From the NCBI GenBank assembly GCA_012842045.1, contig DUTP01000003.1:2532-66531 (forward strand): 64,000 nucleotides of DNA. The letters are read 5' to 3'. Of the stretch, positions 15,548 to 55,420 are shown piece after piece. The stretch is from Candidatus Dojkabacteria bacterium (lineage in GTDB: Bacteria > Patescibacteriota > Dojkabacteria > SC72). The notes under the pieces are model-generated. The model was given only the letters and a program-made list of their open reading frames with translations, ran no database searches and was not told where the DNA came from. Each line of letters begins with the position of its first letter. The first letter of the stretch is position 1. Both the position numbers and the translations under genes were made by a program.

Positions 15548-15868
15548 TTAAATATGTTTTTGTATAGCTGCTCTATAAGATTCTTTTGCTTGAGCACCAA
15601 TTAATGTTTCTACTATTTCACCATTCTTAAAGATATGTATGCATGGAATACTCATAATTTCATACTCTTGTGCTAGCTCGCCCTGTTCATCAACATTAAC
15701 CTTACAAATCTTAACACCATCAAATTCACCAACTAAATCATCGATAATAGGACCAAGCATCTGACAAGGACCACACCAAGGAGCCCAGAAATCAACTAAT
15801 GCAACTCCCTCAAAATCTTTTACTTCTTTTTGAAATGTATCTTGTGTTAAATGTAATACTTCTTTCAT
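15548..15868 (-). CDS. trxA: thioredoxin
   Basis: Active-site WAPWCGPC. 106 aa. Confidence 0.9.
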   Translation of the reverse strand: MKEVLHLTQDTFQKEVKDFEGVALVDFWAPWCGPCQMLGPIIDDLVGEFDGVKICKVNVDEQGELAQEYEIMSIPCIHIFKNGEIVETLIGAQAKESYRAAIQKHI

Positions 15869-47003: not shown

Positions 47004-50000
47004 TTAGTTAATGGAGTTACCTTTTATTCTAATAAAGACACCCTCGCTATTACCTATTTTAATTTCATCCCCAAAAATATTATTTTCATTATCTTTTACT
47101 GTATACAAGAAATGACTCTTTGGCATACTCCATTGTGCGATTTGATGCATTAAGTTAAATTCTTGGTCATTTAATATGTCTTGTGCAGTTTTGTTAGTAT
47201 CTGAAGATAATGTCTTTGATGGTATTAGATGCCAACCACTTCTTAAATCTTCAATCTTAAGAGGAATGGGTATTGCAGCTCCTTTAACTGTGAATTTGAA
47301 GTCTAATCTTGCTTTTGATAGAACTAAGTATGTATTTCCACTGATTAGTGGGAAGTCTGGTCCAAATATTTTGTATAGACCAGTTTCACTATCCTTTTCT
47401 AGTTGTACTATTTTAACCCAGCTTCCATTCTGAAAAAGAGCAACTGTGGTGACCCTGTTATCAGACATGTTTATCAATTCATGTGCTGTTGTCGGGGCAG
47501 AACTCTGCTCTCCAATCACATATACAGGATTGATGAAGTTGTATCCTTCACTTATCTTATACTCTTTTGTGTTAAGGCTACAGTAATCGATTGCTATTTC
47601 TCTTCTTATCTCTCCAGGTATCTCCTTGCAGATGTATGGTTTTAATTTGGATAAAGTCTCATTGTTGTCATTGTAACAACATATGTTTGGAGTCTCTATG
47701 ACTCTTCCATCTGTGGTGCATGTTTTACCTATCTTAACATCTTTGTCCTCTATACCACTTCCTTCTGGATATATGCAAATACAGCCAGATTCGTTTTCAC
47801 AATCCCTATCTTCATCTGTTATATATAATTTTTCCTTACCGTATGTGTTCTTAGGTTCAATACTGCCATCTCTTTTACATACATCCTTATTAGTTACTAC
47901 CGCCCAATCAGGTTCTCTAGATATTTCGTCCCACTGGCATATACAATTGTTTCTATCGTTGCAATGCAGATCATTGTCCAAGGGTATATGAAGTATCGTT
48001 CTGATAATTTGAGGGTCAGGTAATGGTGTACAGGCTTCTCCCTGTTTAACTACCAGTTCTGTATTTGCCTCATCTGAGTACATGCAGATACAACCTTTTT
48101 CATTTTCACATACCATATATCTATCGCCCATTTGAATTTCTTCTTTACCGTATCTGTCAACAGGTACAACATCTCCTGGAGGGATTGCTAAACATACATA
48201 TTTATTTTCAACATCTTTCTGTATTCTTGGATCTACTTCGAGCCAGTAGCATATACATCCTTTTCTGTTGTTACAATGTTGGTCTTCATCTGTAATATAG
48301 AGTATGGTTTTTCCATCTCCTCTGATTATTGTACCATCTTTGCCACAGAAATCTCCCAGCTCTACTCTCTCTGTTCTTTCTGGAGGACCTGGATATATAC
48401 ATATACAACCATTTTCATTTTCGCATATAACATCAGTATCCCCTATAATTATGTCTTCTGGGTCATCTTCACTTTCTTTACATTTCTTCCCACATGGTAC
48501 TTCTTTTAAGTATCCTTTATATTCCTCACCATCTTTACTTCTAAAACACTCACAACCACCACCATCCCAACATGTTTCTCCTATGATAATATCTGCCTTA
48601 CCTGGTGGATCTTCAGAACAGTCCTTGTTTCCACCATCACTCTCACTTGGTGGCCCGAATCGACTCCCAGGACCTCCTGGACCTCCACCACCTTTGGTTG
48701 TACCTTTACACACTTCTTCTGAGCTAAACCATTCCATACCTTCATCATCTAGTTGATGACAACGAGTACGAGTGTTTTTTGTTTCTTCACATCCATCATC
48801 TCCCCAATCTGCTGTTCCCCAACATTTATACCAAGGGCCTCCATCAAGACAGTATTCATTTCTTCTAACTTTGAATGGGCCTACAACTTTTAGACCTCCT
48901 ATTACAACAGTACATTCACAACCAGTTATATGTTGACAAAGATGTTCTTCAGACCAAGGATCCATTTGTGGGTGAATGTATACTGTTTTCTCCTCTAATC
49001 CTTCCTCCGTGTATTCTGATTCTCCACCACTCAGCATTTTATCTAGATTGATGGAAGCATTACTATAATTACATGCGTTATGATCTGCGGGAATTAATGA
49101 ATATCCACTATAATAATCTTGAGAACTGCCTATATTTATATAATTTTCAACACCTTCTGTTGTTTTTTCTGCTCCACCAAATAAATATAAAGGACTAAGT
49201 GGCATTTCACTCTGTGCAGTTATTATAGCGTAATGATAATTAGTCTTAGTCCAGTATTTTAACCCATCAAAAAGGGAGCCATCACATCCTGATTTGTATT
49301 TTGCACCCCACTTAGCGTTTGTTTCTATTTTTTCACCCATTAAACGAACGACGTCATCAGAGATTATATCTCTTCTCTTTTTTTTGTCTGTAACCTCCTC
49401 CATATCTAAGAACTCTTGTTCTGATATTGTTCCACCACAATTTGCATAAAGAGTTCCCATCTTAGCAAGCTTTATGAACCAGTCTAATTGATCTTTAAAA
49501 TTTACATAGAGGTCATCTAATCCCGGATCGACACCAAAATCGTGAGTATTATTTGCATTTATTGCTACGTAATTACTGCCAGCAGTTTCTTGGTACCACA
49601 TTGTCAGAGCAAACCATGGGTTTACACCAGATTCCATACTTGTACAGTAAACATCATTGAAACATATTTCTACATAGTTAGCCTTACTATCTGAGTTCTC
49701 TCTTCCGTAATGTCTATCTGCAATAGCTTTTAACCATCCCCAAGAGTAATAAGATCCTGCATAACTCACTACGAAAGCTTCATTATTTATTTCTATACCA
49801 GTTAAACAGTTTGCAGGAAGTTTAAGTCGTTCACCTGGAGTTTGAGCACTACCATCAGCATAAACTCTTCTAACCAACATACTGTTTAATTTCTCTCTTA
49901 ATATCTCTTTAGTACTAATCTGTGCATACTCCTGTTTTGTATACTTTTTCCCCTGAGAGTCAAACGCATATGATCCAACATACCAAGAGTTAATCATAAT

Positions 50001-50492
50001 CTTCTCGCCATCTTCACTAGTCATGAGTAATAACTTATCAAATGTAGCTGTTCCTGTGGTAACAGTAGGCATTGTAATATTGTCTTTTACTTTTGGAGTT
50101 TTAAAAGAGTATCCATCTCTCCACATCTTTCTGTTTGAGATAATATGAAATTCATACTCTGTATCAGGTTTTAATTCTCCTATTCGACCAATATAAAGGT
50201 TTGTTTTTGTTAAATTATCATCAAAAACAAATAAATTTTCAGATACAAATTGAAGAGCCTCTGTAGATCCTTTCTCTCTGTAAGTTAATAACTGTAGACG
50301 ATCTTCACTTGTTTTCCAGAATACCTCAGCACTATTAGGTGAAATATTTGCAACTACAACATCAAATGGTTTCTCTTTAGCTATCTCAATTAGTTTTACA
50401 TTCTCAATAAATATTAATATACCACCAACAATTAGAGATATTGCAAAAATATATTTTAAAGCAAAAAATATTTTTTTCTTTGTTGTGTTCAT
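47004..50492 (-). CDS. giant secreted protein (1162 aa): signal-anchor, FN3-like domain, Gly/Pro-rich linker, tandem Cys-rich 'GCIC' repeats
   Basis: N-terminal TM. FN3-like PFDVVVANISPNSAEVFWKTSE...YEFHI. GGGGPGGPGSRFGPP. At least 5 repeats of [IL]xDEDxxCxNxxGCIC[IMQY][YW]. Confidence 0.6.
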   Translation of the reverse strand: MNTTKKKIFFALKYIFAISLIVGGILIFIENVKLIEIAKEKPFDVVVANISPNSAEVFWKTSEDRLQLLTYREKGSTEALQFVSENLFVFDDNLTKTNLYIGRIGELKPDTEYEFHIISNRKMWRDGYSFKTPKVKDNITMPTVTTGTATFDKLLLMTSEDGEKIMINSWYVGSYAFDSQGKKYTKQEYAQISTKEILREKLNSMLVRRVYADGSAQTPGERLKLPANCLTGIEINNEAFVVSYAGSYYSWGWLKAIADRHYGRENSDSKANYVEICFNDVYCTSMESGVNPWFALTMWYQETAGSNYVAINANNTHDFGVDPGLDDLYVNFKDQLDWFIKLAKMGTLYANCGGTISEQEFLDMEEVTDKKKRRDIISDDVVRLMGEKIETNAKWGAKYKSGCDGSLFDGLKYWTKTNYHYAIITAQSEMPLSPLYLFGGAEKTTEGVENYINIGSSQDYYSGYSLIPADHNACNYSNASINLDKMLSGGESEYTEEGLEEKTVYIHPQMDPWSEEHLCQHITGCECTVVIGGLKVVGPFKVRRNEYCLDGGPWYKCWGTADWGDDGCEETKNTRTRCHQLDDEGMEWFSSEEVCKGTTKGGGGPGGPGSRFGPPSESDGGNKDCSEDPPGKADIIIGETCWDGGGCECFRSKDGEEYKGYLKEVPCGKKCKESEDDPEDIIIGDTDVICENENGCICIYPGPPERTERVELGDFCGKDGTIIRGDGKTILYITDEDQHCNNRKGCICYWLEVDPRIQKDVENKYVCLAIPPGDVVPVDRYGKEEIQMGDRYMVCENEKGCICMYSDEANTELVVKQGEACTPLPDPQIIRTILHIPLDNDLHCNDRNNCICQWDEISREPDWAVVTNKDVCKRDGSIEPKNTYGKEKLYITDEDRDCENESGCICIYPEGSGIEDKDVKIGKTCTTDGRVIETPNICCYNDNNETLSKLKPYICKEIPGEIRREIAIDYCSLNTKEYKISEGYNFINPVYVIGEQSSAPTTAHELINMSDNRVTTVALFQNGSWVKIVQLEKDSETGLYKIFGPDFPLISGNTYLVLSKARLDFKFTVKGAAIPIPLKIEDLRSGWHLIPSKTLSSDTNKTAQDILNDQEFNLMHQIAQWSMPKSHFLYTVKDNENNIFGDEIKIGNSEGVFIRIKGNSIN

Positions 50493-51374: not shown

Positions 51375-52556
51375 ATGGAAGAAAGTACAGATTGGTATGA
51401 CGAAGTAACTAAAGAATTAGATGACTTAGTACATAAAGGACAGGTTTATGCACAAAATCCAGTTAATTTTATACATGCAGACTGTTGGTGTGGTTCTAAT
51501 AAAAAATATAAAGATTGTCACTACAAGCAAATTGATATGGCACCAATGACCAAGGAAGATTGTCGTCTCATATTTAAAAAATATAGAAGAAAGAGTTATT
51601 CTTGTTTGTTTAATGGTTGTTCAGAAAAATCAATAAAGTCTCATTCTATTCCTTCTAGTTGGTTGTCATCTATTATAGATTCAGATAATTTTGTTTATAA
51701 TTTCCCACTAAATCTTTTTAATAGTTCTCCAGAAGAGCCTTTTGAAGTAGAGAAACTTGGGGTTTTTGAGAGTTCAACTTTTAAGGGGTTTTGTTTGGAA
51801 CATGATTCAAAATTGTTTGAAAAGATAGAAAAAGAAGGAGGTTGGGAACTAACCGATGAAAACTGTTTGCTACTTTACTACAGAAGTGTATGTTATGAAC
51901 TTTTTGCCAAATGTAGAGCAATGAGTATTTTAGAAGAAGTGAGGGGAGATATTAGTATGGGAAAAGACCCTGTTTCTCAAGTATGCATATTTGAAGTACT
52001 ATGTGGGAGAATCTTGGGAATGAAAAAAGCGGTTGAAGATTTAAGTGTTTTGAAAGATAAAATAGAGCAATATATCAAAGAAAAAGATTTCAGTGTCGTT
52101 TCTTATACATATATCCCCATAGAGAGTCCAATAAACATAATGGCTAGTGGAATTCATCATCCAGAACAGACATTTGAAGGAAGAGATTTGCAGAATCTGG
52201 CAGAAGATAATTTGATGAATATGTCCTGTATTGTAGGGCAGAATGGGGAGGAGGAATTTGTTTTATTCATAAGCATAGATGAGAATGATGAAAGAGCTGC
52301 AAGATTTCATAAGGATTTATTAACTTGTGATAATTTAGGTAATCGCATAGTAATTTATCTTCTTGAGACAACTGAAAATTTGTTTTGGAGAATTTCTGAT
52401 TGGGATCATTTAACAAATACTCAAAAAGACAAGGTGTATAGTATCTTAGGAGGTTCAGTTAATAGTGATATCTTGGAATACTCAAAAGAGGATTTTATTA
52501 CTGGTATAGAATCCTTTGCTACAAAGGACTCTAAAATACAACAAAAGATTGTTTAA
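51375..52556 (+). CDS. hypothetical protein with N-terminal SEC-C metal-binding motif
   Basis: CWCGSNKKYKDCHY matches the SEC-C motif (CxCGSxxKYKxCH). Confidence 0.5.
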   Translation: MEESTDWYDEVTKELDDLVHKGQVYAQNPVNFIHADCWCGSNKKYKDCHYKQIDMAPMTKEDCRLIFKKYRRKSYSCLFNGCSEKSIKSHSIPSSWLSSIIDSDNFVYNFPLNLFNSSPEEPFEVEKLGVFESSTFKGFCLEHDSKLFEKIEKEGGWELTDENCLLLYYRSVCYELFAKCRAMSILEEVRGDISMGKDPVSQVCIFEVLCGRILGMKKAVEDLSVLKDKIEQYIKEKDFSVVSYTYIPIESPINIMASGIHHPEQTFEGRDLQNLAEDNLMNMSCIVGQNGEEEFVLFISIDENDERAARFHKDLLTCDNLGNRIVIYLLETTENLFWRISDWDHLTNTQKDKVYSILGGSVNSDILEYSKEDFITGIESFATKDSKIQQKIV

Positions 52557-52606: not shown

Positions 52607-53107
52607 TTACCTTTCTTTGTGTCCTATCTTTTCCTCTGTCAAATCTTTGGAAATTTCTTTCTTTATTTCTTTTTTGGTTTTAAATAATTTATACAGTAGA
52701 ATAAATACAAGAATAGATGGTCTACCACCTCCAAACAGAGATAAAAGAACTATAATTATTGAATAAATAATTAGAAAGGTAATAATTCTTTTTATTTTGC
52801 CTGTGTCAGTATCACCTATCTTTCTCATTCGTATTCCACTAACAAGCATAGGTATAAAGAAAATTATAATTAACAAAGCAGCTAGTATAGAACTTCCTTT
52901 TATAAAGAGCATATATAAAGGTAAGATTACAATCTGGATAATAGAATAACCTATTGTAAGATTAGCAAGACTAAGGATGCTTTTCTTAATTGTGTCTTGA
53001 GTAGTAGATTGGGTAATCTTCTTCTTAGAGGTGGGTTTGTCATTCTCATCTAGATGTAAGATGTGTGTTATCCCATCTTTCTCTATCTTCACATCTCTGT
53101 TTTCCAT
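52607..53107 (-). CDS. small hypothetical membrane protein
   Basis: 166 aa with ~3 TM helices. Start codon lies inside the repeated sequence of the structured leader. Confidence 0.45.
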   Translation of the reverse strand: MENRDVKIEKDGITHILHLDENDKPTSKKKITQSTTQDTIKKSILSLANLTIGYSIIQIVILPLYMLFIKGSSILAALLIIIFFIPMLVSGIRMRKIGDTDTGKIKRIITFLIIYSIIIVLLSLFGGGRPSILVFILLYKLFKTKKEIKKEISKDLTEEKIGHKER

Positions 53108-53266
53108 TGGTGTGGTTTTTAAATTTTAGCTGTCTTCTAGAGACCACAAATGGTCTCCCGCTCACCGACAGTCCCTTTCGGAACCATCCATAAACCTTTC
53201 GGCTTATGACCACACCAATGGCTAGCGAGACAGAAGACCATCTCTGCATTGGTGTGGTTTTTGTGC
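53104..53266 (-). ncRNA. GC-rich structured RNA element with mutually exclusive pairings (riboswitch/attenuator-like; strand uncertain)
   Basis: ~50% GC island in a 33% GC genome. Direct repeats ccattggtgtggttttt (53104-53120) and cattggtgtggttttt (53247-53262). The intervening gaccacaccaatgg (53208-53221) can pair with either copy. GAAA-capped hairpins lie between. Confidence 0.4.
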
Positions 53267-53561
53267 CATACCTACAAAAGTAGGGTTAGGCTATTCAATT
53301 GTTCCAGATTATAGCATTTTCTTTAGAAAAAAGTACAAAAAAACAAATAATAAACATATGCTGTAAAACACAACCAAAACCCTCGCCCCAACTTGCTTTT
53401 GATTATTTCCATGTTAAACAAAAATCTTGGAGAATCTTGGAATATGTTGGAAAATGTTGGTATATGTGAACTGGGTGAAATAACAGCTTTTAAGGGGTTG
53501 TAAGGCTGTTTAAACAGTTGATTACAAGCAAGCGGTGTGTTTATATGTTAAAATCTATTGA

Positions 53562-53795
53562 ATGAAAAGATTTGGTAAATCTTCTAAAAAAGAAAAGGAA
53601 GATTTTGGACTAAGAGGGTTCTTTAAGGCTGTTAAAGACATACTAGATAATCCTCAATTCACAATACGATATTCAAAAGGTAAAAAAGACATAACAGGAC
53701 ATGCTTATACAGAAGCTTCAGTAGGTGATGACCTGAATGTTGAGCATACACCAAAAGGAGAAACAAAAAGTAAAGTTATAAAAGTAGATAAATGA
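53562..53795 (+). CDS. small basic protein translationally coupled to the serine recombinase (possible directionality factor/accessory)
   Basis: 77 aa. ATGA overlap with the recombinase start at 53792. Confidence 0.35.
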   Translation: MKRFGKSSKKEKEDFGLRGFFKAVKDILDNPQFTIRYSKGKKDITGHAYTEASVGDDLNVEHTPKGETKSKVIKVDK

Positions 53796-55387
53796 ACAAT
53801 GCAGACACCAAGAAAATTAAGGTGTTGGCATATCTAAGGAAATCAACAGAAGATAACAAAGAGGGGGAGGCTAGAAGGCAAAAAAATTCAATAGAGTATC
53901 AAAGAGAGGTAGTAAAAGAAATTGCTGAGAGAAACAATTTGGAAATTGTACGATATTTTGAAGATAGTAAAACTGGGTATAAAGCTTTTCAAAGAGAAGG
54001 GTTTGATAAGATGTTAGAATTCTTCAGAGAACAAAAACATGAAGGTGTTGTCAAAGGGATAGTTTGTTCTGAACATAACAGATTAGCTAGAAATTTTGGA
54101 GATGGAGGGTTTTTGTTGTGGTATTTACAAGATGGGTTAATAAACACCATATATACATATGACAAGATCTTCACCAATTCAGCTAGTGACCAGATGATGT
54201 TGGCTATAAACTTTGCTATGTCAAAACATTCTAGCGATGAAACAAGTTGGAGAACAAAAAGAACATGGAGTCATAGAGCACATACAGAAGGACAACCACC
54301 AAATCAGCATTTAGCAGGATATAAATATACAGGTGAAAAAGGGAAGAGATTTTGGACAGTTGACAAAAAGAATGCTCCTATCGTCAAAGAAATGTTTGAG
54401 AGGTTTGCAACAGGTGAGTATACAGTAAGTGAAATTTTTGATTATGCTGTATCAGAAGGTTTAACAAGTCCTAAAAGCAAGAAAACATATGATTCAGAGA
54501 AATCAATAAGAGGGCTATTAAAGAAAAAAGAATATACAGGAATATTTATGTATGAAGGTGAGGAAATAAAAGGGAAGTATCCACCTCTTATTAGCTCCGA
54601 ACTATTTTACAAGGTGCAAGAAGTGTTGTCGGGAACAGCACATCCTAAGACACAAGGCAAGAATGAATATGCTTATACTGGCTTAGTAAAGTGTGGTGTT
54701 TGTGGTGGGAATATGTCTGGGACTATTAGAAAAGGAATAACATATTACAGATGTCTTCATCGTTATGAACCTTGTAAGAGTAATAAAGGACAACGACCTT
54801 CTTATCTAAGAGAAACTCTTATAGATGAAGAAATTACTGAACTGTTACTAAAGATTCAGGTTTCTGACAAACAGTTTAATAAGCTAATTCCTTATGTATC
54901 TGACTTTTTTGAAGATGAGAAGTCTAAATACAGATATGAGATAATTCAACTCAAGGGCAAGCTTACAGAGGCACAAAGAAATTTAGATTTTTACAATAAA
55001 GAGTTATTCACAATAAAAAGAGTTCCCGAAAAGGAAAGAGATAAAGATTGGTTAATGGATAAAGAAGGTTTAGAAGGGCTTAGAGAAAATGCTCATCAAG
55101 AAAAAGAGATGTATGAGAGACAGATTTCTAAAGCGGAAAACTTAAAAGATACAGTTCCAACTTTAATGTTTAATTTCCTTAAGGGAATAAAAATTGTTGG
55201 TAGTAGATTTAAAACAGCTTCACCCTCTAATAAGCGACAGATTGTAGATACTCTTTGCGCGAACTTTAAGTGGAATGGCAAAGAACTAAGCTGGGAGTGG
55301 AAAAAACCATACCACCTACTTACAAATTCTAATGAAAAAAGAAGATGGCTCCGCGACCAGGACTCGAACCTGGAACCGAACGGTTAA
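53792..55387 (+). CDS. large serine recombinase (phage-integrase type)
   Basis: N-terminal resolvase domain KVLAYLRKSTEDN. Recombinase domain. Zinc ribbon CGVCGGNMSG...YYRCLHRYEPC. Coiled-coil. The last 14 codons run into tRNA-Asn on the opposite strand. Confidence 0.8.
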   Translation: MNNADTKKIKVLAYLRKSTEDNKEGEARRQKNSIEYQREVVKEIAERNNLEIVRYFEDSKTGYKAFQREGFDKMLEFFREQKHEGVVKGIVCSEHNRLARNFGDGGFLLWYLQDGLINTIYTYDKIFTNSASDQMMLAINFAMSKHSSDETSWRTKRTWSHRAHTEGQPPNQHLAGYKYTGEKGKRFWTVDKKNAPIVKEMFERFATGEYTVSEIFDYAVSEGLTSPKSKKTYDSEKSIRGLLKKKEYTGIFMYEGEEIKGKYPPLISSELFYKVQEVLSGTAHPKTQGKNEYAYTGLVKCGVCGGNMSGTIRKGITYYRCLHRYEPCKSNKGQRPSYLRETLIDEEITELLLKIQVSDKQFNKLIPYVSDFFEDEKSKYRYEIIQLKGKLTEAQRNLDFYNKELFTIKRVPEKERDKDWLMDKEGLEGLRENAHQEKEMYERQISKAENLKDTVPTLMFNFLKGIKIVGSRFKTASPSNKRQIVDTLCANFKWNGKELSWEWKKPYHLLTNSNEKRRWLRDQDSNLEPNG

Positions 55388-55420
55388 CAGCCGTTTGCTC
55401 TACCATTGAGCTATCGCGGA
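55346..55420 (-). tRNA. tRNA-Asn (anticodon GTT), CCA encoded
   Basis: Reverse complement TCCGCGATAGCTCAATGGTAGAGCAAACGGCTGTTAACCGTTCGGTTCCAGGTTCGAGTCCTGGTCGCGGAGCCA. Confidence 0.85.

Follow-up and report, generated by a model that had tools for sequence, protein, structure and literature searches.

The window analysed here, a 64,000-nucleotide stretch of Candidatus Dojkabacteria DNA, holds a short segment in which two copies of one sequence accompany a complement of both, and the question it raises is whether this segment encodes an RNA that can fold in two ways and, if so, which RNA it is and which gene it governs. The two direct copies of CATTGGTGTGGTTTTT described in the first-pass annotation are present and exact over 16 nt (53105-53120 and 53247-53262, 1-2 nt away from the coordinates first given), and the complement said to be able to pair with either copy, ACCACACCAATGG, lies at 53209-53221, from where it makes 13 perfect pairs with 53104-53116 and 12 with 53247-53258. 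Allowing up to three mismatches, the 16-mer was matched four times in the window against 0.55 expected, a count that none of 100 shuffles reached. A three-mismatch match at 15766-15781 on the minus strand, CCTTGGTGTGGTCCTT, is probably due to chance. Read on the minus strand, the copy at 53120..53105 closes with the ATG (53107..53105) of the open reading frame 52607..53107, as had already been seen in the sequence, and the two GAAA-capped hairpins reported earlier are found on the same strand (GCCGAAAGG, 53203..53195; GUUCCGAAAGGGAC, 53184..53171). The G+C content of the segment is 48% in a window of about 30-35%, and for the 221-nt RNA of the minus strand the folding energy is -82.4 kcal/mol (z = -7.2 relative to dinucleotide-shuffled sequences). 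The interval first proposed, 53104-53266, does contain structured RNA and is too short at the 5' end of that RNA, where it misses P1 and the promoter-proximal part; the structured element spans from about 53304 (53292 in the Rfam model) down to 53104.

The first-pass annotation could not assign the element to a known class; the class is, however, a known one. On the minus strand, cmscan identified LOOT RNA (Rfam RF03000) at 53292..53167, full-length (model positions 1-121 of 121) and above threshold (score 74.5 bits, gathering score 46.4, E 3.6e-12). A run of Rfam on both strands had been proposed as a check; performed permissively (E<=10), it returned this known family as the only significant match and no other credible family, no ykkC and no other riboswitch on either strand. 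The diagnostic parts of LOOT are all in place: P1 with CCUAA and AUGG, followed by the AAAAA linker (GCCUAACCC...GGUAUGGCACAAAAAC at 53291..53257), a long P2 of 11 perfect pairs, P3 (GCCGAAAGG) capped by GAAA and P4 (CCGAAAGG) capped by a GNRA loop. The window element is a copy of LOOT RNA, a catalogued family of ultra-small (CPR) bacteria with no known function, whose members come from metagenomes and CPR genomes. Among the papers that we reached, it figures only as one of the metagenome-derived additions of Rfam 14 (PMC7779021), as a family refined with R-scape in Rfam 15 (PMC11701678), and as an example with about 43 base pairs, six helices and 28 'cross-covariations' (PMC7657543). It goes back to a survey of 224 motifs (Weinberg et al. 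2017), the main text of which does not discuss LOOT. Rfam assigns it the type 'Gene; sRNA', and the literature that we reached contained no study of its function. The locus adds no new RNA class and is a member of a known, functionally orphan family. Whereas the Rfam model ends at P4, the element described here continues on both sides, with a promoter-proximal 5' motif, a 3' tail engaged in a covarying pseudoknot, and a downstream b2/a2 platform on the start codon (labels as in Table 1), the last of these present in about 17% of members, among them the window element. The open reading frame 53046..53249, which lies on the LOOT strand within the RNA, is very probably spurious coding, as had been supposed; at loci L006, L008, L009 and L010 the 77-aa and 166-aa genes have no called gene between them.

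Table 1. Parts of the LOOT element and its gene in the window, listed from the promoter to the coding sequence.
Feature	Position	Strand	Basis
Extended -10 promoter element TGCTATAAT	53308..53316 (read 53316 to 53308)	minus	sequence; family position
Conserved 5' motif ACAAUUGAAU (family ACAAYUKAAU); probably the first transcript bases	53293..53302	minus	1-8 nt before GCCUAA in most of 52 loci
LOOT core, Rfam RF03000 (P1, linker, P2, P3, P4)	53167..53292	minus	cmscan
P1 hairpin; internal loop CCUAAC / UAUGG, like the 11-nt GAAA-tetraloop receptor	53265..53291	minus	alignment
Linker ACAAAAA and P2 basal 5' strand a, CCACACCAAUG (upstream repeat copy)	53247..53264	minus	
P2 apical segment b, 5' strand of the pseudoknot; alternatively a small apical hairpin	53222..53246	minus	duplex energy with tail; family covariation
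P2 basal 3' strand a', CCAUUGGUGUGGU; partner common to a and a2	53209..53221	minus	
P3 hairpin, GAAA loop	53189..53208	minus	covariation
P4 hairpin, GNRA (GAAA) loop	53167..53188	minus	Rfam and covariation
3' tail b', GGUGAGCGGGAGACCAUUUGUGG, beyond the Rfam model; pairs with the P2 loop, conserved U-rich UUUGUG at its end	53144..53166	minus	
Local hairpin b':b2, GGAGACCA-UUUG-UGGUCUCU; excludes the pseudoknot	53139..53158	minus	-11.7 kcal/mol
a2, downstream copy AAAAACCACACCAAUGG, holding the start codon 53107..53105; 13-nt pairing with a'	53104..53120	minus	
Controlled gene (putative): 166-aa protein, about four transmembrane segments, no family	52607..53107	minus	

Relatives were collected with a pattern derived from the conserved 5' part of LOOT, which matched 119 loci in species-representative genomes (51 of them LOOT by structure) and 120 loci in metagenomes (68 LOOT). 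CPR genomes and metagenomes together supplied about 120 LOOT loci for comparison, aligned as 52 and as 117 sequences. The genome loci belong nearly all to Patescibacteria/CPR, ranging over Levy-, Doudna-, Gottesman-, Curtiss-, Yanofsky- and Saccharibacteria, Paceibacterota and others, and all 17 relatives of the a2 class that were rechecked with Rfam scored as LOOT at 76-95 bits. The window locus itself (166-aa gene and leader) is identical in five public assemblies, and the window matches a contig of GCA_036836175.1; because the five assemblies show no difference anywhere in 53060-53340 (100% identity), they are uninformative for covariation. Five pattern matches in viral contigs of IMG/VR included no LOOT by Rfam and were set aside as chance matches. 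At two loci (L067, 5182-5330; L039, 7138-7260) a LOOT-like start with P1, linker and the 5' strand of P2 diverges past the P2 loop or lacks P3 and P4, and these elements may be truncated or disrupted LOOT genes. Two metagenome-assembled genomes carry two LOOT copies each (L013 and L099 in Doudnabacteria MFD04434.bin.1.36; L052 and L061 in bacterium WY2.bin75), so a single genome can hold several LOOT-led genes.

Covariation in relatives, which the first-pass annotation had named as a check, was found in the helices and in a pseudoknot across the 52-117 sequences. The basal helix of P2 retains 9-12 perfect pairs with a sequence that differs in almost every locus. P3 is paired in 98.4-98.8% of alignment cells, with compensatory changes in 8 of 8 pairs, and its GAAA loop is nearly invariant. 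Beyond P4, the family has a 3' tail with the consensus GCUGGCGGCGAGCUU followed by UUGUGUU, and this tail complements the apical segment of P2. In the alignment of 52 sequences the resulting pseudoknot comprises 14 pairs, 90% paired, 13 of which change on both sides; in that of 117, pairing reaches 95% over 11 core pairs, of which 10 vary on both sides or in a compensatory manner, one column pair being GC in 44, CG in 40, AU in 12, UG in 12 and UA in 5. The corresponding duplex of the window, with an energy of -31.7 kcal/mol, joins loop 53246..53223 to tail 53166..53144. The 5' strand of the pseudoknot also serves a small apical hairpin in the Rfam model, and this hairpin covaries too; the sharing of the strand probably accounts for the cross-covariations reported for LOOT. 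A further local hairpin between b' and b2, of the CUGGCGG...CCGCCAG type, is seen at about half of the loci and at each of the ten a2-class loci of the genome set. Duplex energies of b':b2 were not significantly different from shuffles overall (median z -0.6), and a stem-length test gave p<=0.05 at 7 of 49 loci; b2 is a moderately supported, frequent feature of LOOT loci.

Moreover, the scaffold is likely to be braced by a tertiary contact. The 11-nt GAAA-tetraloop receptor has the sequence CCUAAG/UAUGG (PMC11381326). In the window the internal loop of P1 reads CCUAAC/UAUGG, most relatives having CCUAAA/CAUGG; it deviates from the canonical G-U at the sixth/seventh position, and the P3 loop is almost always GAAA. 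The P1 internal-loop columns are invariant in the 117 sequences, an invariance that the search pattern itself demanded. Docking of the P3 GAAA loop into this receptor-like loop is a reasonable inference from these motifs. Where the receptor has its G-U pair, base six of CCUAAN and base one of NAUGG mostly change jointly (A with C, C with U), with a few exceptions (L181, L223). In the search for a pairing partner of the 5' ACAAUUUAAU motif, the MAFFT alignment broke the motif apart; an ACAA:UUGU pairing of the 5' motif with the U-rich tract is possible and varies too little for a covariation test.

The position of LOOT relative to its neighbours points to its role. Across 51 LOOT loci, TATAAT-like hexamers cluster 22-26 nt before GCCUAA and are followed by the conserved ACAAYUKAAU, making an own promoter of LOOT likely; the -10 box of the window was not flagged by a simple -35/-10 scan, and no -35 match was present. 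Among loci with enough flank, the longest open reading frame just downstream is co-oriented with LOOT in 98 of 103, and the one upstream in 39 of 100. Since the ATG usually follows a few tens of nucleotides past the U-rich tract, there is hardly space for a separate promoter. LOOT is most likely the 5' leader of the gene behind it, with a 5' end, strand and read-through that we infer from sequence. The same architecture could, however, describe a stand-alone, trans-acting sRNA that ends at the pseudoknot and its U-rich tract and for which a2 is a target on the neighbouring mRNA, reached through a'. The Rfam type agrees with such an sRNA, as do the genomes with more than one LOOT (L013 with L099; L052 with L061) and the appearance of the b:b' helix, which is G+C-rich, preceded by A residues and directly followed by UUUGUGUU, as in an intrinsic terminator. 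Nevertheless, we consider the sRNA unlikely. A co-oriented gene begins within a few tens of nucleotides in those 98 of 103 loci, leaving no room for a promoter of its own; a' is held in a perfect 9-12-bp helix and offers no exposed seed; and the supposed terminator, atypical in having a loop of about 65 nt as well as a pseudoknot, is not called by a terminator scan.

What connects the leader to translation is a2, a near-exact copy of the 5' strand of P2. It is present at 10 of the 52 loci from genomes and at 9-12 of the 68 from metagenomes, together about 20 loci or about a sixth of the family. It always lies 115-142 nt past the linker and either ends 0-12 nt from the ATG or overlaps it. At least 13 different a2 sequences occur, each matching its own P2 (for example CCACACCAAUG in the window, and CCUACCAGGGU, CUGUUCAGGU, CCCACUACAGG, CCUAGUAGAG, CCAUACCUACA, CCGACCAAGGC and CCUACGCGAA elsewhere), and the start region is more complementary to its own LOOT than to other LOOTs in 89% of a2 loci compared to 8% of the rest. 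The a':a2 duplex of the window has an energy of -23.9 against a control mean of -5.1, and over the a2 loci the two competing duplexes are about equally strong (median -21.2 kcal/mol for a:a' and -23.7 kcal/mol for a':a2). The strand of the Rfam match and about 20 independent LOOT loci of different sequence thus back the claim that, on the minus strand, the ATG of 52607..53107 is hidden or freed by alternative pairing; the general view of a structured RNA with mutually exclusive helices is supported as well.

Repeats of this kind could also be scars of a DNA-level duplication, or att-like sites of a serine-recombinase element, rather than RNA partners. A large serine recombinase is encoded 500 bp away, its homologues occur at 41 of 119 LOOT loci, and the ends of mobile elements typically carry direct repeats. 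Such an origin is very improbable on several counts. The repeats enclose only 126 bp, which are the 3' part of LOOT itself, and serine recombinases leave behind only a 2-bp crossover. Furthermore, the pattern demands a third, complementary copy, and its G-U pairs make the helices strand-specific. The elements are ordered a, b ... b2, a2, mirrored as nested helices need and not in tandem, and where a and a' pair imperfectly (L047 and L082), a2 is the better complement of a' than a is; both observations argue for pairing in RNA and not for duplication of DNA, as does the constant placement of a2 at the start codon. An intrinsic terminator on the plus strand, in which the hairpin 53209-53258 and TTTTT would compete with an anti-terminator, had been put forward as well. 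That hairpin and its T5 run do exist on the plus strand, but the reading is scarcely credible: only the minus strand gives a match to the covariance model, the T run is what the family-wide AAAAA linker looks like on the opposite strand, the loop measures 26 nt, the terminator scan calls nothing, and the whole would stand antisense to, and within, a minus-strand transcription unit. A guanidine-I (ykkC)-like or other known riboswitch, suggested solely by an early impression of GGGA/CUAG-like elements, can be dismissed at the level of Rfam models, which matched no riboswitch family on either strand even at E<=10.

We therefore favour, with a probability of roughly 0.6, a cis-acting switch in which a LOOT leader with two folds would gate translation of the 166-aa membrane-protein gene. 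For the 220-nt leader, energies of nested structures were -79.5 kcal/mol with a:a' paired (the LOOT fold) and -81.7 kcal/mol with a':a2 paired, a comparison that omits the pseudoknot and any tertiary contacts, both of which would count in favour of the LOOT fold. Up to about nt 195 the LOOT fold has the minimum energy; the flip comes at nt 202, where a2 is complete. In the second fold the a':a2 helix, 53221..53209 with 53116..53104, spans the AUG and the nine bases before it; no Shine-Dalgarno sequence was found in the start region of the window. A course of events consistent with these features would begin with minus-strand transcription from the extended -10 promoter of LOOT, starting just past the -10 box. 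The LOOT core (P1, P2 through a:a', P3, P4) would fold first, the tail b' would then close the pseudoknot with b, and the start codon would be left single-stranded; the P3 GAAA loop docked in P1 probably braces this first fold. As b2 and a2 emerge, the RNA could isomerise to b':b2 and a':a2, burying the AUG with the 9 nt before it and blocking initiation. The second fold would be slightly more stable once a2 is made, so that anything stabilising the LOOT tertiary fold would keep translation on and its loss would turn it off; candidate triggers are a ligand, a protein, Mg2+ or folding kinetics only. The proposed direction of the switch, on while the LOOT fold stands, would follow from this order of folding. 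As a counterpoint, the pseudoknot followed by UUUGUGUU looks like a terminator, and some transcripts may end before a2.

The a2 platform is a property of a subclass. At loci without a2 the start region was not specifically complementary to the LOOT of its own locus, and because about 80% of LOOT leaders thus lack both, translational control through such a platform is not the general output of the family. For leaders without a2 we conjecture that the output is a long-range terminator, formed by the A tract, the G+C-rich helix and the U tract of the pseudoknotted form. Judged by the features of riboswitches, LOOT has a conserved, structured domain in the 5' UTR (a pseudoknotted, promoter-proximal scaffold, co-oriented with the following gene as counted above), and the a2 class has mutually exclusive pairings at initiation (a:a' versus a':a2 at the AUG, and b:b' versus b':b2). 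A metabolic or transport theme downstream was not observed, the themes being membrane or secreted proteins and DNA methyltransferases, and the label 'riboswitch' is unproven for LOOT because of this heterogeneity, by which LOOT differs from classical metabolite riboswitches, and because no ligand is known.

Several characterised systems offer partial parallels. With translational riboswitch platforms (anti-SD/anti-anti-SD logic; aptamers stabilised by a pseudoknot, for instance the SAM-II or preQ1 classes) the window element shares a conserved, structured 5' mRNA domain, a strand, a', with two partners, one of them at the start region, and the competition of a pseudoknot with a local hairpin; it differs in having no known ligand or common pathway, in the restriction of the platform to a subclass, and in hiding the AUG instead of an SD sequence. 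In the metastable folds of hok mRNA and in the leader of the MS2 maturation gene, an early co-transcriptional fold opens the start and a later long-range pairing closes it, and the products are often small membrane proteins. The LOOT leader would, by analogy, follow a similar early-open, late-closed logic, without an evident antisense RNA or processing step and with a far more elaborate conserved tertiary scaffold. The bridge RNA of IS110 likewise combines a conserved scaffold with a hypervariable segment beside a recombinase gene in mobile elements. In LOOT, by contrast, the recombinase is of the large serine type, its distance and orientation vary, and the variable segment is an internal helix with an additional partner on the start codon.

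The genes behind LOOT are diverse, with 74 singletons among 114 downstream proteins and a median length of 172 aa. Membrane or secreted proteins make up 66% of them compared to 28% of neighbouring open reading frames (p 3e-12), and a DNA methyltransferase was found at 9 of 19 a2 loci versus none of 95 other loci (p 1.4e-8). For the 166-aa protein of the window and its neighbours, Pfam and PADLOC returned nothing beyond a SEC-C motif and recombinase domains. A 1162-aa cysteine-rich repeat protein with an N-terminal signal or transmembrane segment and a weak match to purple-acid-phosphatase-N/FN3 is encoded at 47004-50492; relative to the tRNA-Asn/recombinase end it lies on the LOOT side, as does the SEC-C-motif protein (51375..52556).

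Apart from this functional diversity, a link between LOOT and mobile DNA was observed. In the window, a large serine recombinase gene on the plus strand (53792..55387) overlaps, by 42 nt, the 3' part of a tRNA-Asn gene that converges on it from the minus strand (55346..55420). The homologues of this recombinase at 41 of the 119 LOOT loci whose flanks were examined are mostly divergent and 0.1-6 kb upstream, and of 16 LOOT loci with a tRNA, 11 have the stop codon of the recombinase within a tRNA gene on the opposite strand (Asn four times, Tyr twice, Leu, Ala, Met, His, Arg). The arrangement points to a CPR family of serine-integrase elements that target tRNA genes and, on account of the recombinase homologues and the stop within the tRNA, LOOT modules look like regulated cargo units of such elements. 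Within 34 kb, neither a second 3' part of tRNA-Asn nor another long direct repeat marked a border of the island, which is expected of an element of the serine-recombinase type. The 77-aa open reading frame had no homologues at other LOOT loci. Between the LOOT promoter and the operon of the 77-aa open reading frame and the recombinase lies a divergent region of 268 bp, where four tandem repeats of about 10 nt (AATCTTGGAG, AATCTTGGAA, TATGTTGGAA and AATGTTGG) occupy 53423-53460 and may be a binding array for a regulator or for the recombinase.

Other arrangements of LOOT and recombinase genes were also seen. At eight loci (L027, L114, L132, L154, L206, L217, L218, L243) a shorter serine recombinase of about 440 aa on the LOOT strand stops 22-40 nt before GCCUAA, so that the -10 box of LOOT overlaps its stop codon. 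At two further loci (L178, 4375-6613, and L149) LOOT heads an operon in which a 116-aa tail-anchored membrane protein is followed, after 20 nt, by a serine recombinase ending in tRNA-Asn. LOOT may control the integrase itself in some elements. A bolder extension holds that LOOT is a functional RNA part of widespread CPR integrative elements whose large serine recombinases end in tRNA genes, for example by tying the expression of integrase, methyltransferase or envelope genes to the state of the element, or even by acting with the recombinase, its hypervariable P2 strand recognising a nucleic-acid partner in the manner of the guide-like RNAs of other recombinase systems; we regard this as improbable.

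The locus and its relatives offer a concrete and testable mechanism for LOOT, namely two competing folds, one of which would bury the start codon. New here is a covarying pseudoknot that is absent from the current Rfam model, and LOOT is placed in a setting of CPR mobile elements with serine recombinases, DNA methyltransferases and envelope proteins. To our knowledge, few regulators are recognised in CPR bacteria, and for this reason a widespread RNA switch in their mobile DNA, if true, would provide a useful handle on the control of defence and surface genes.
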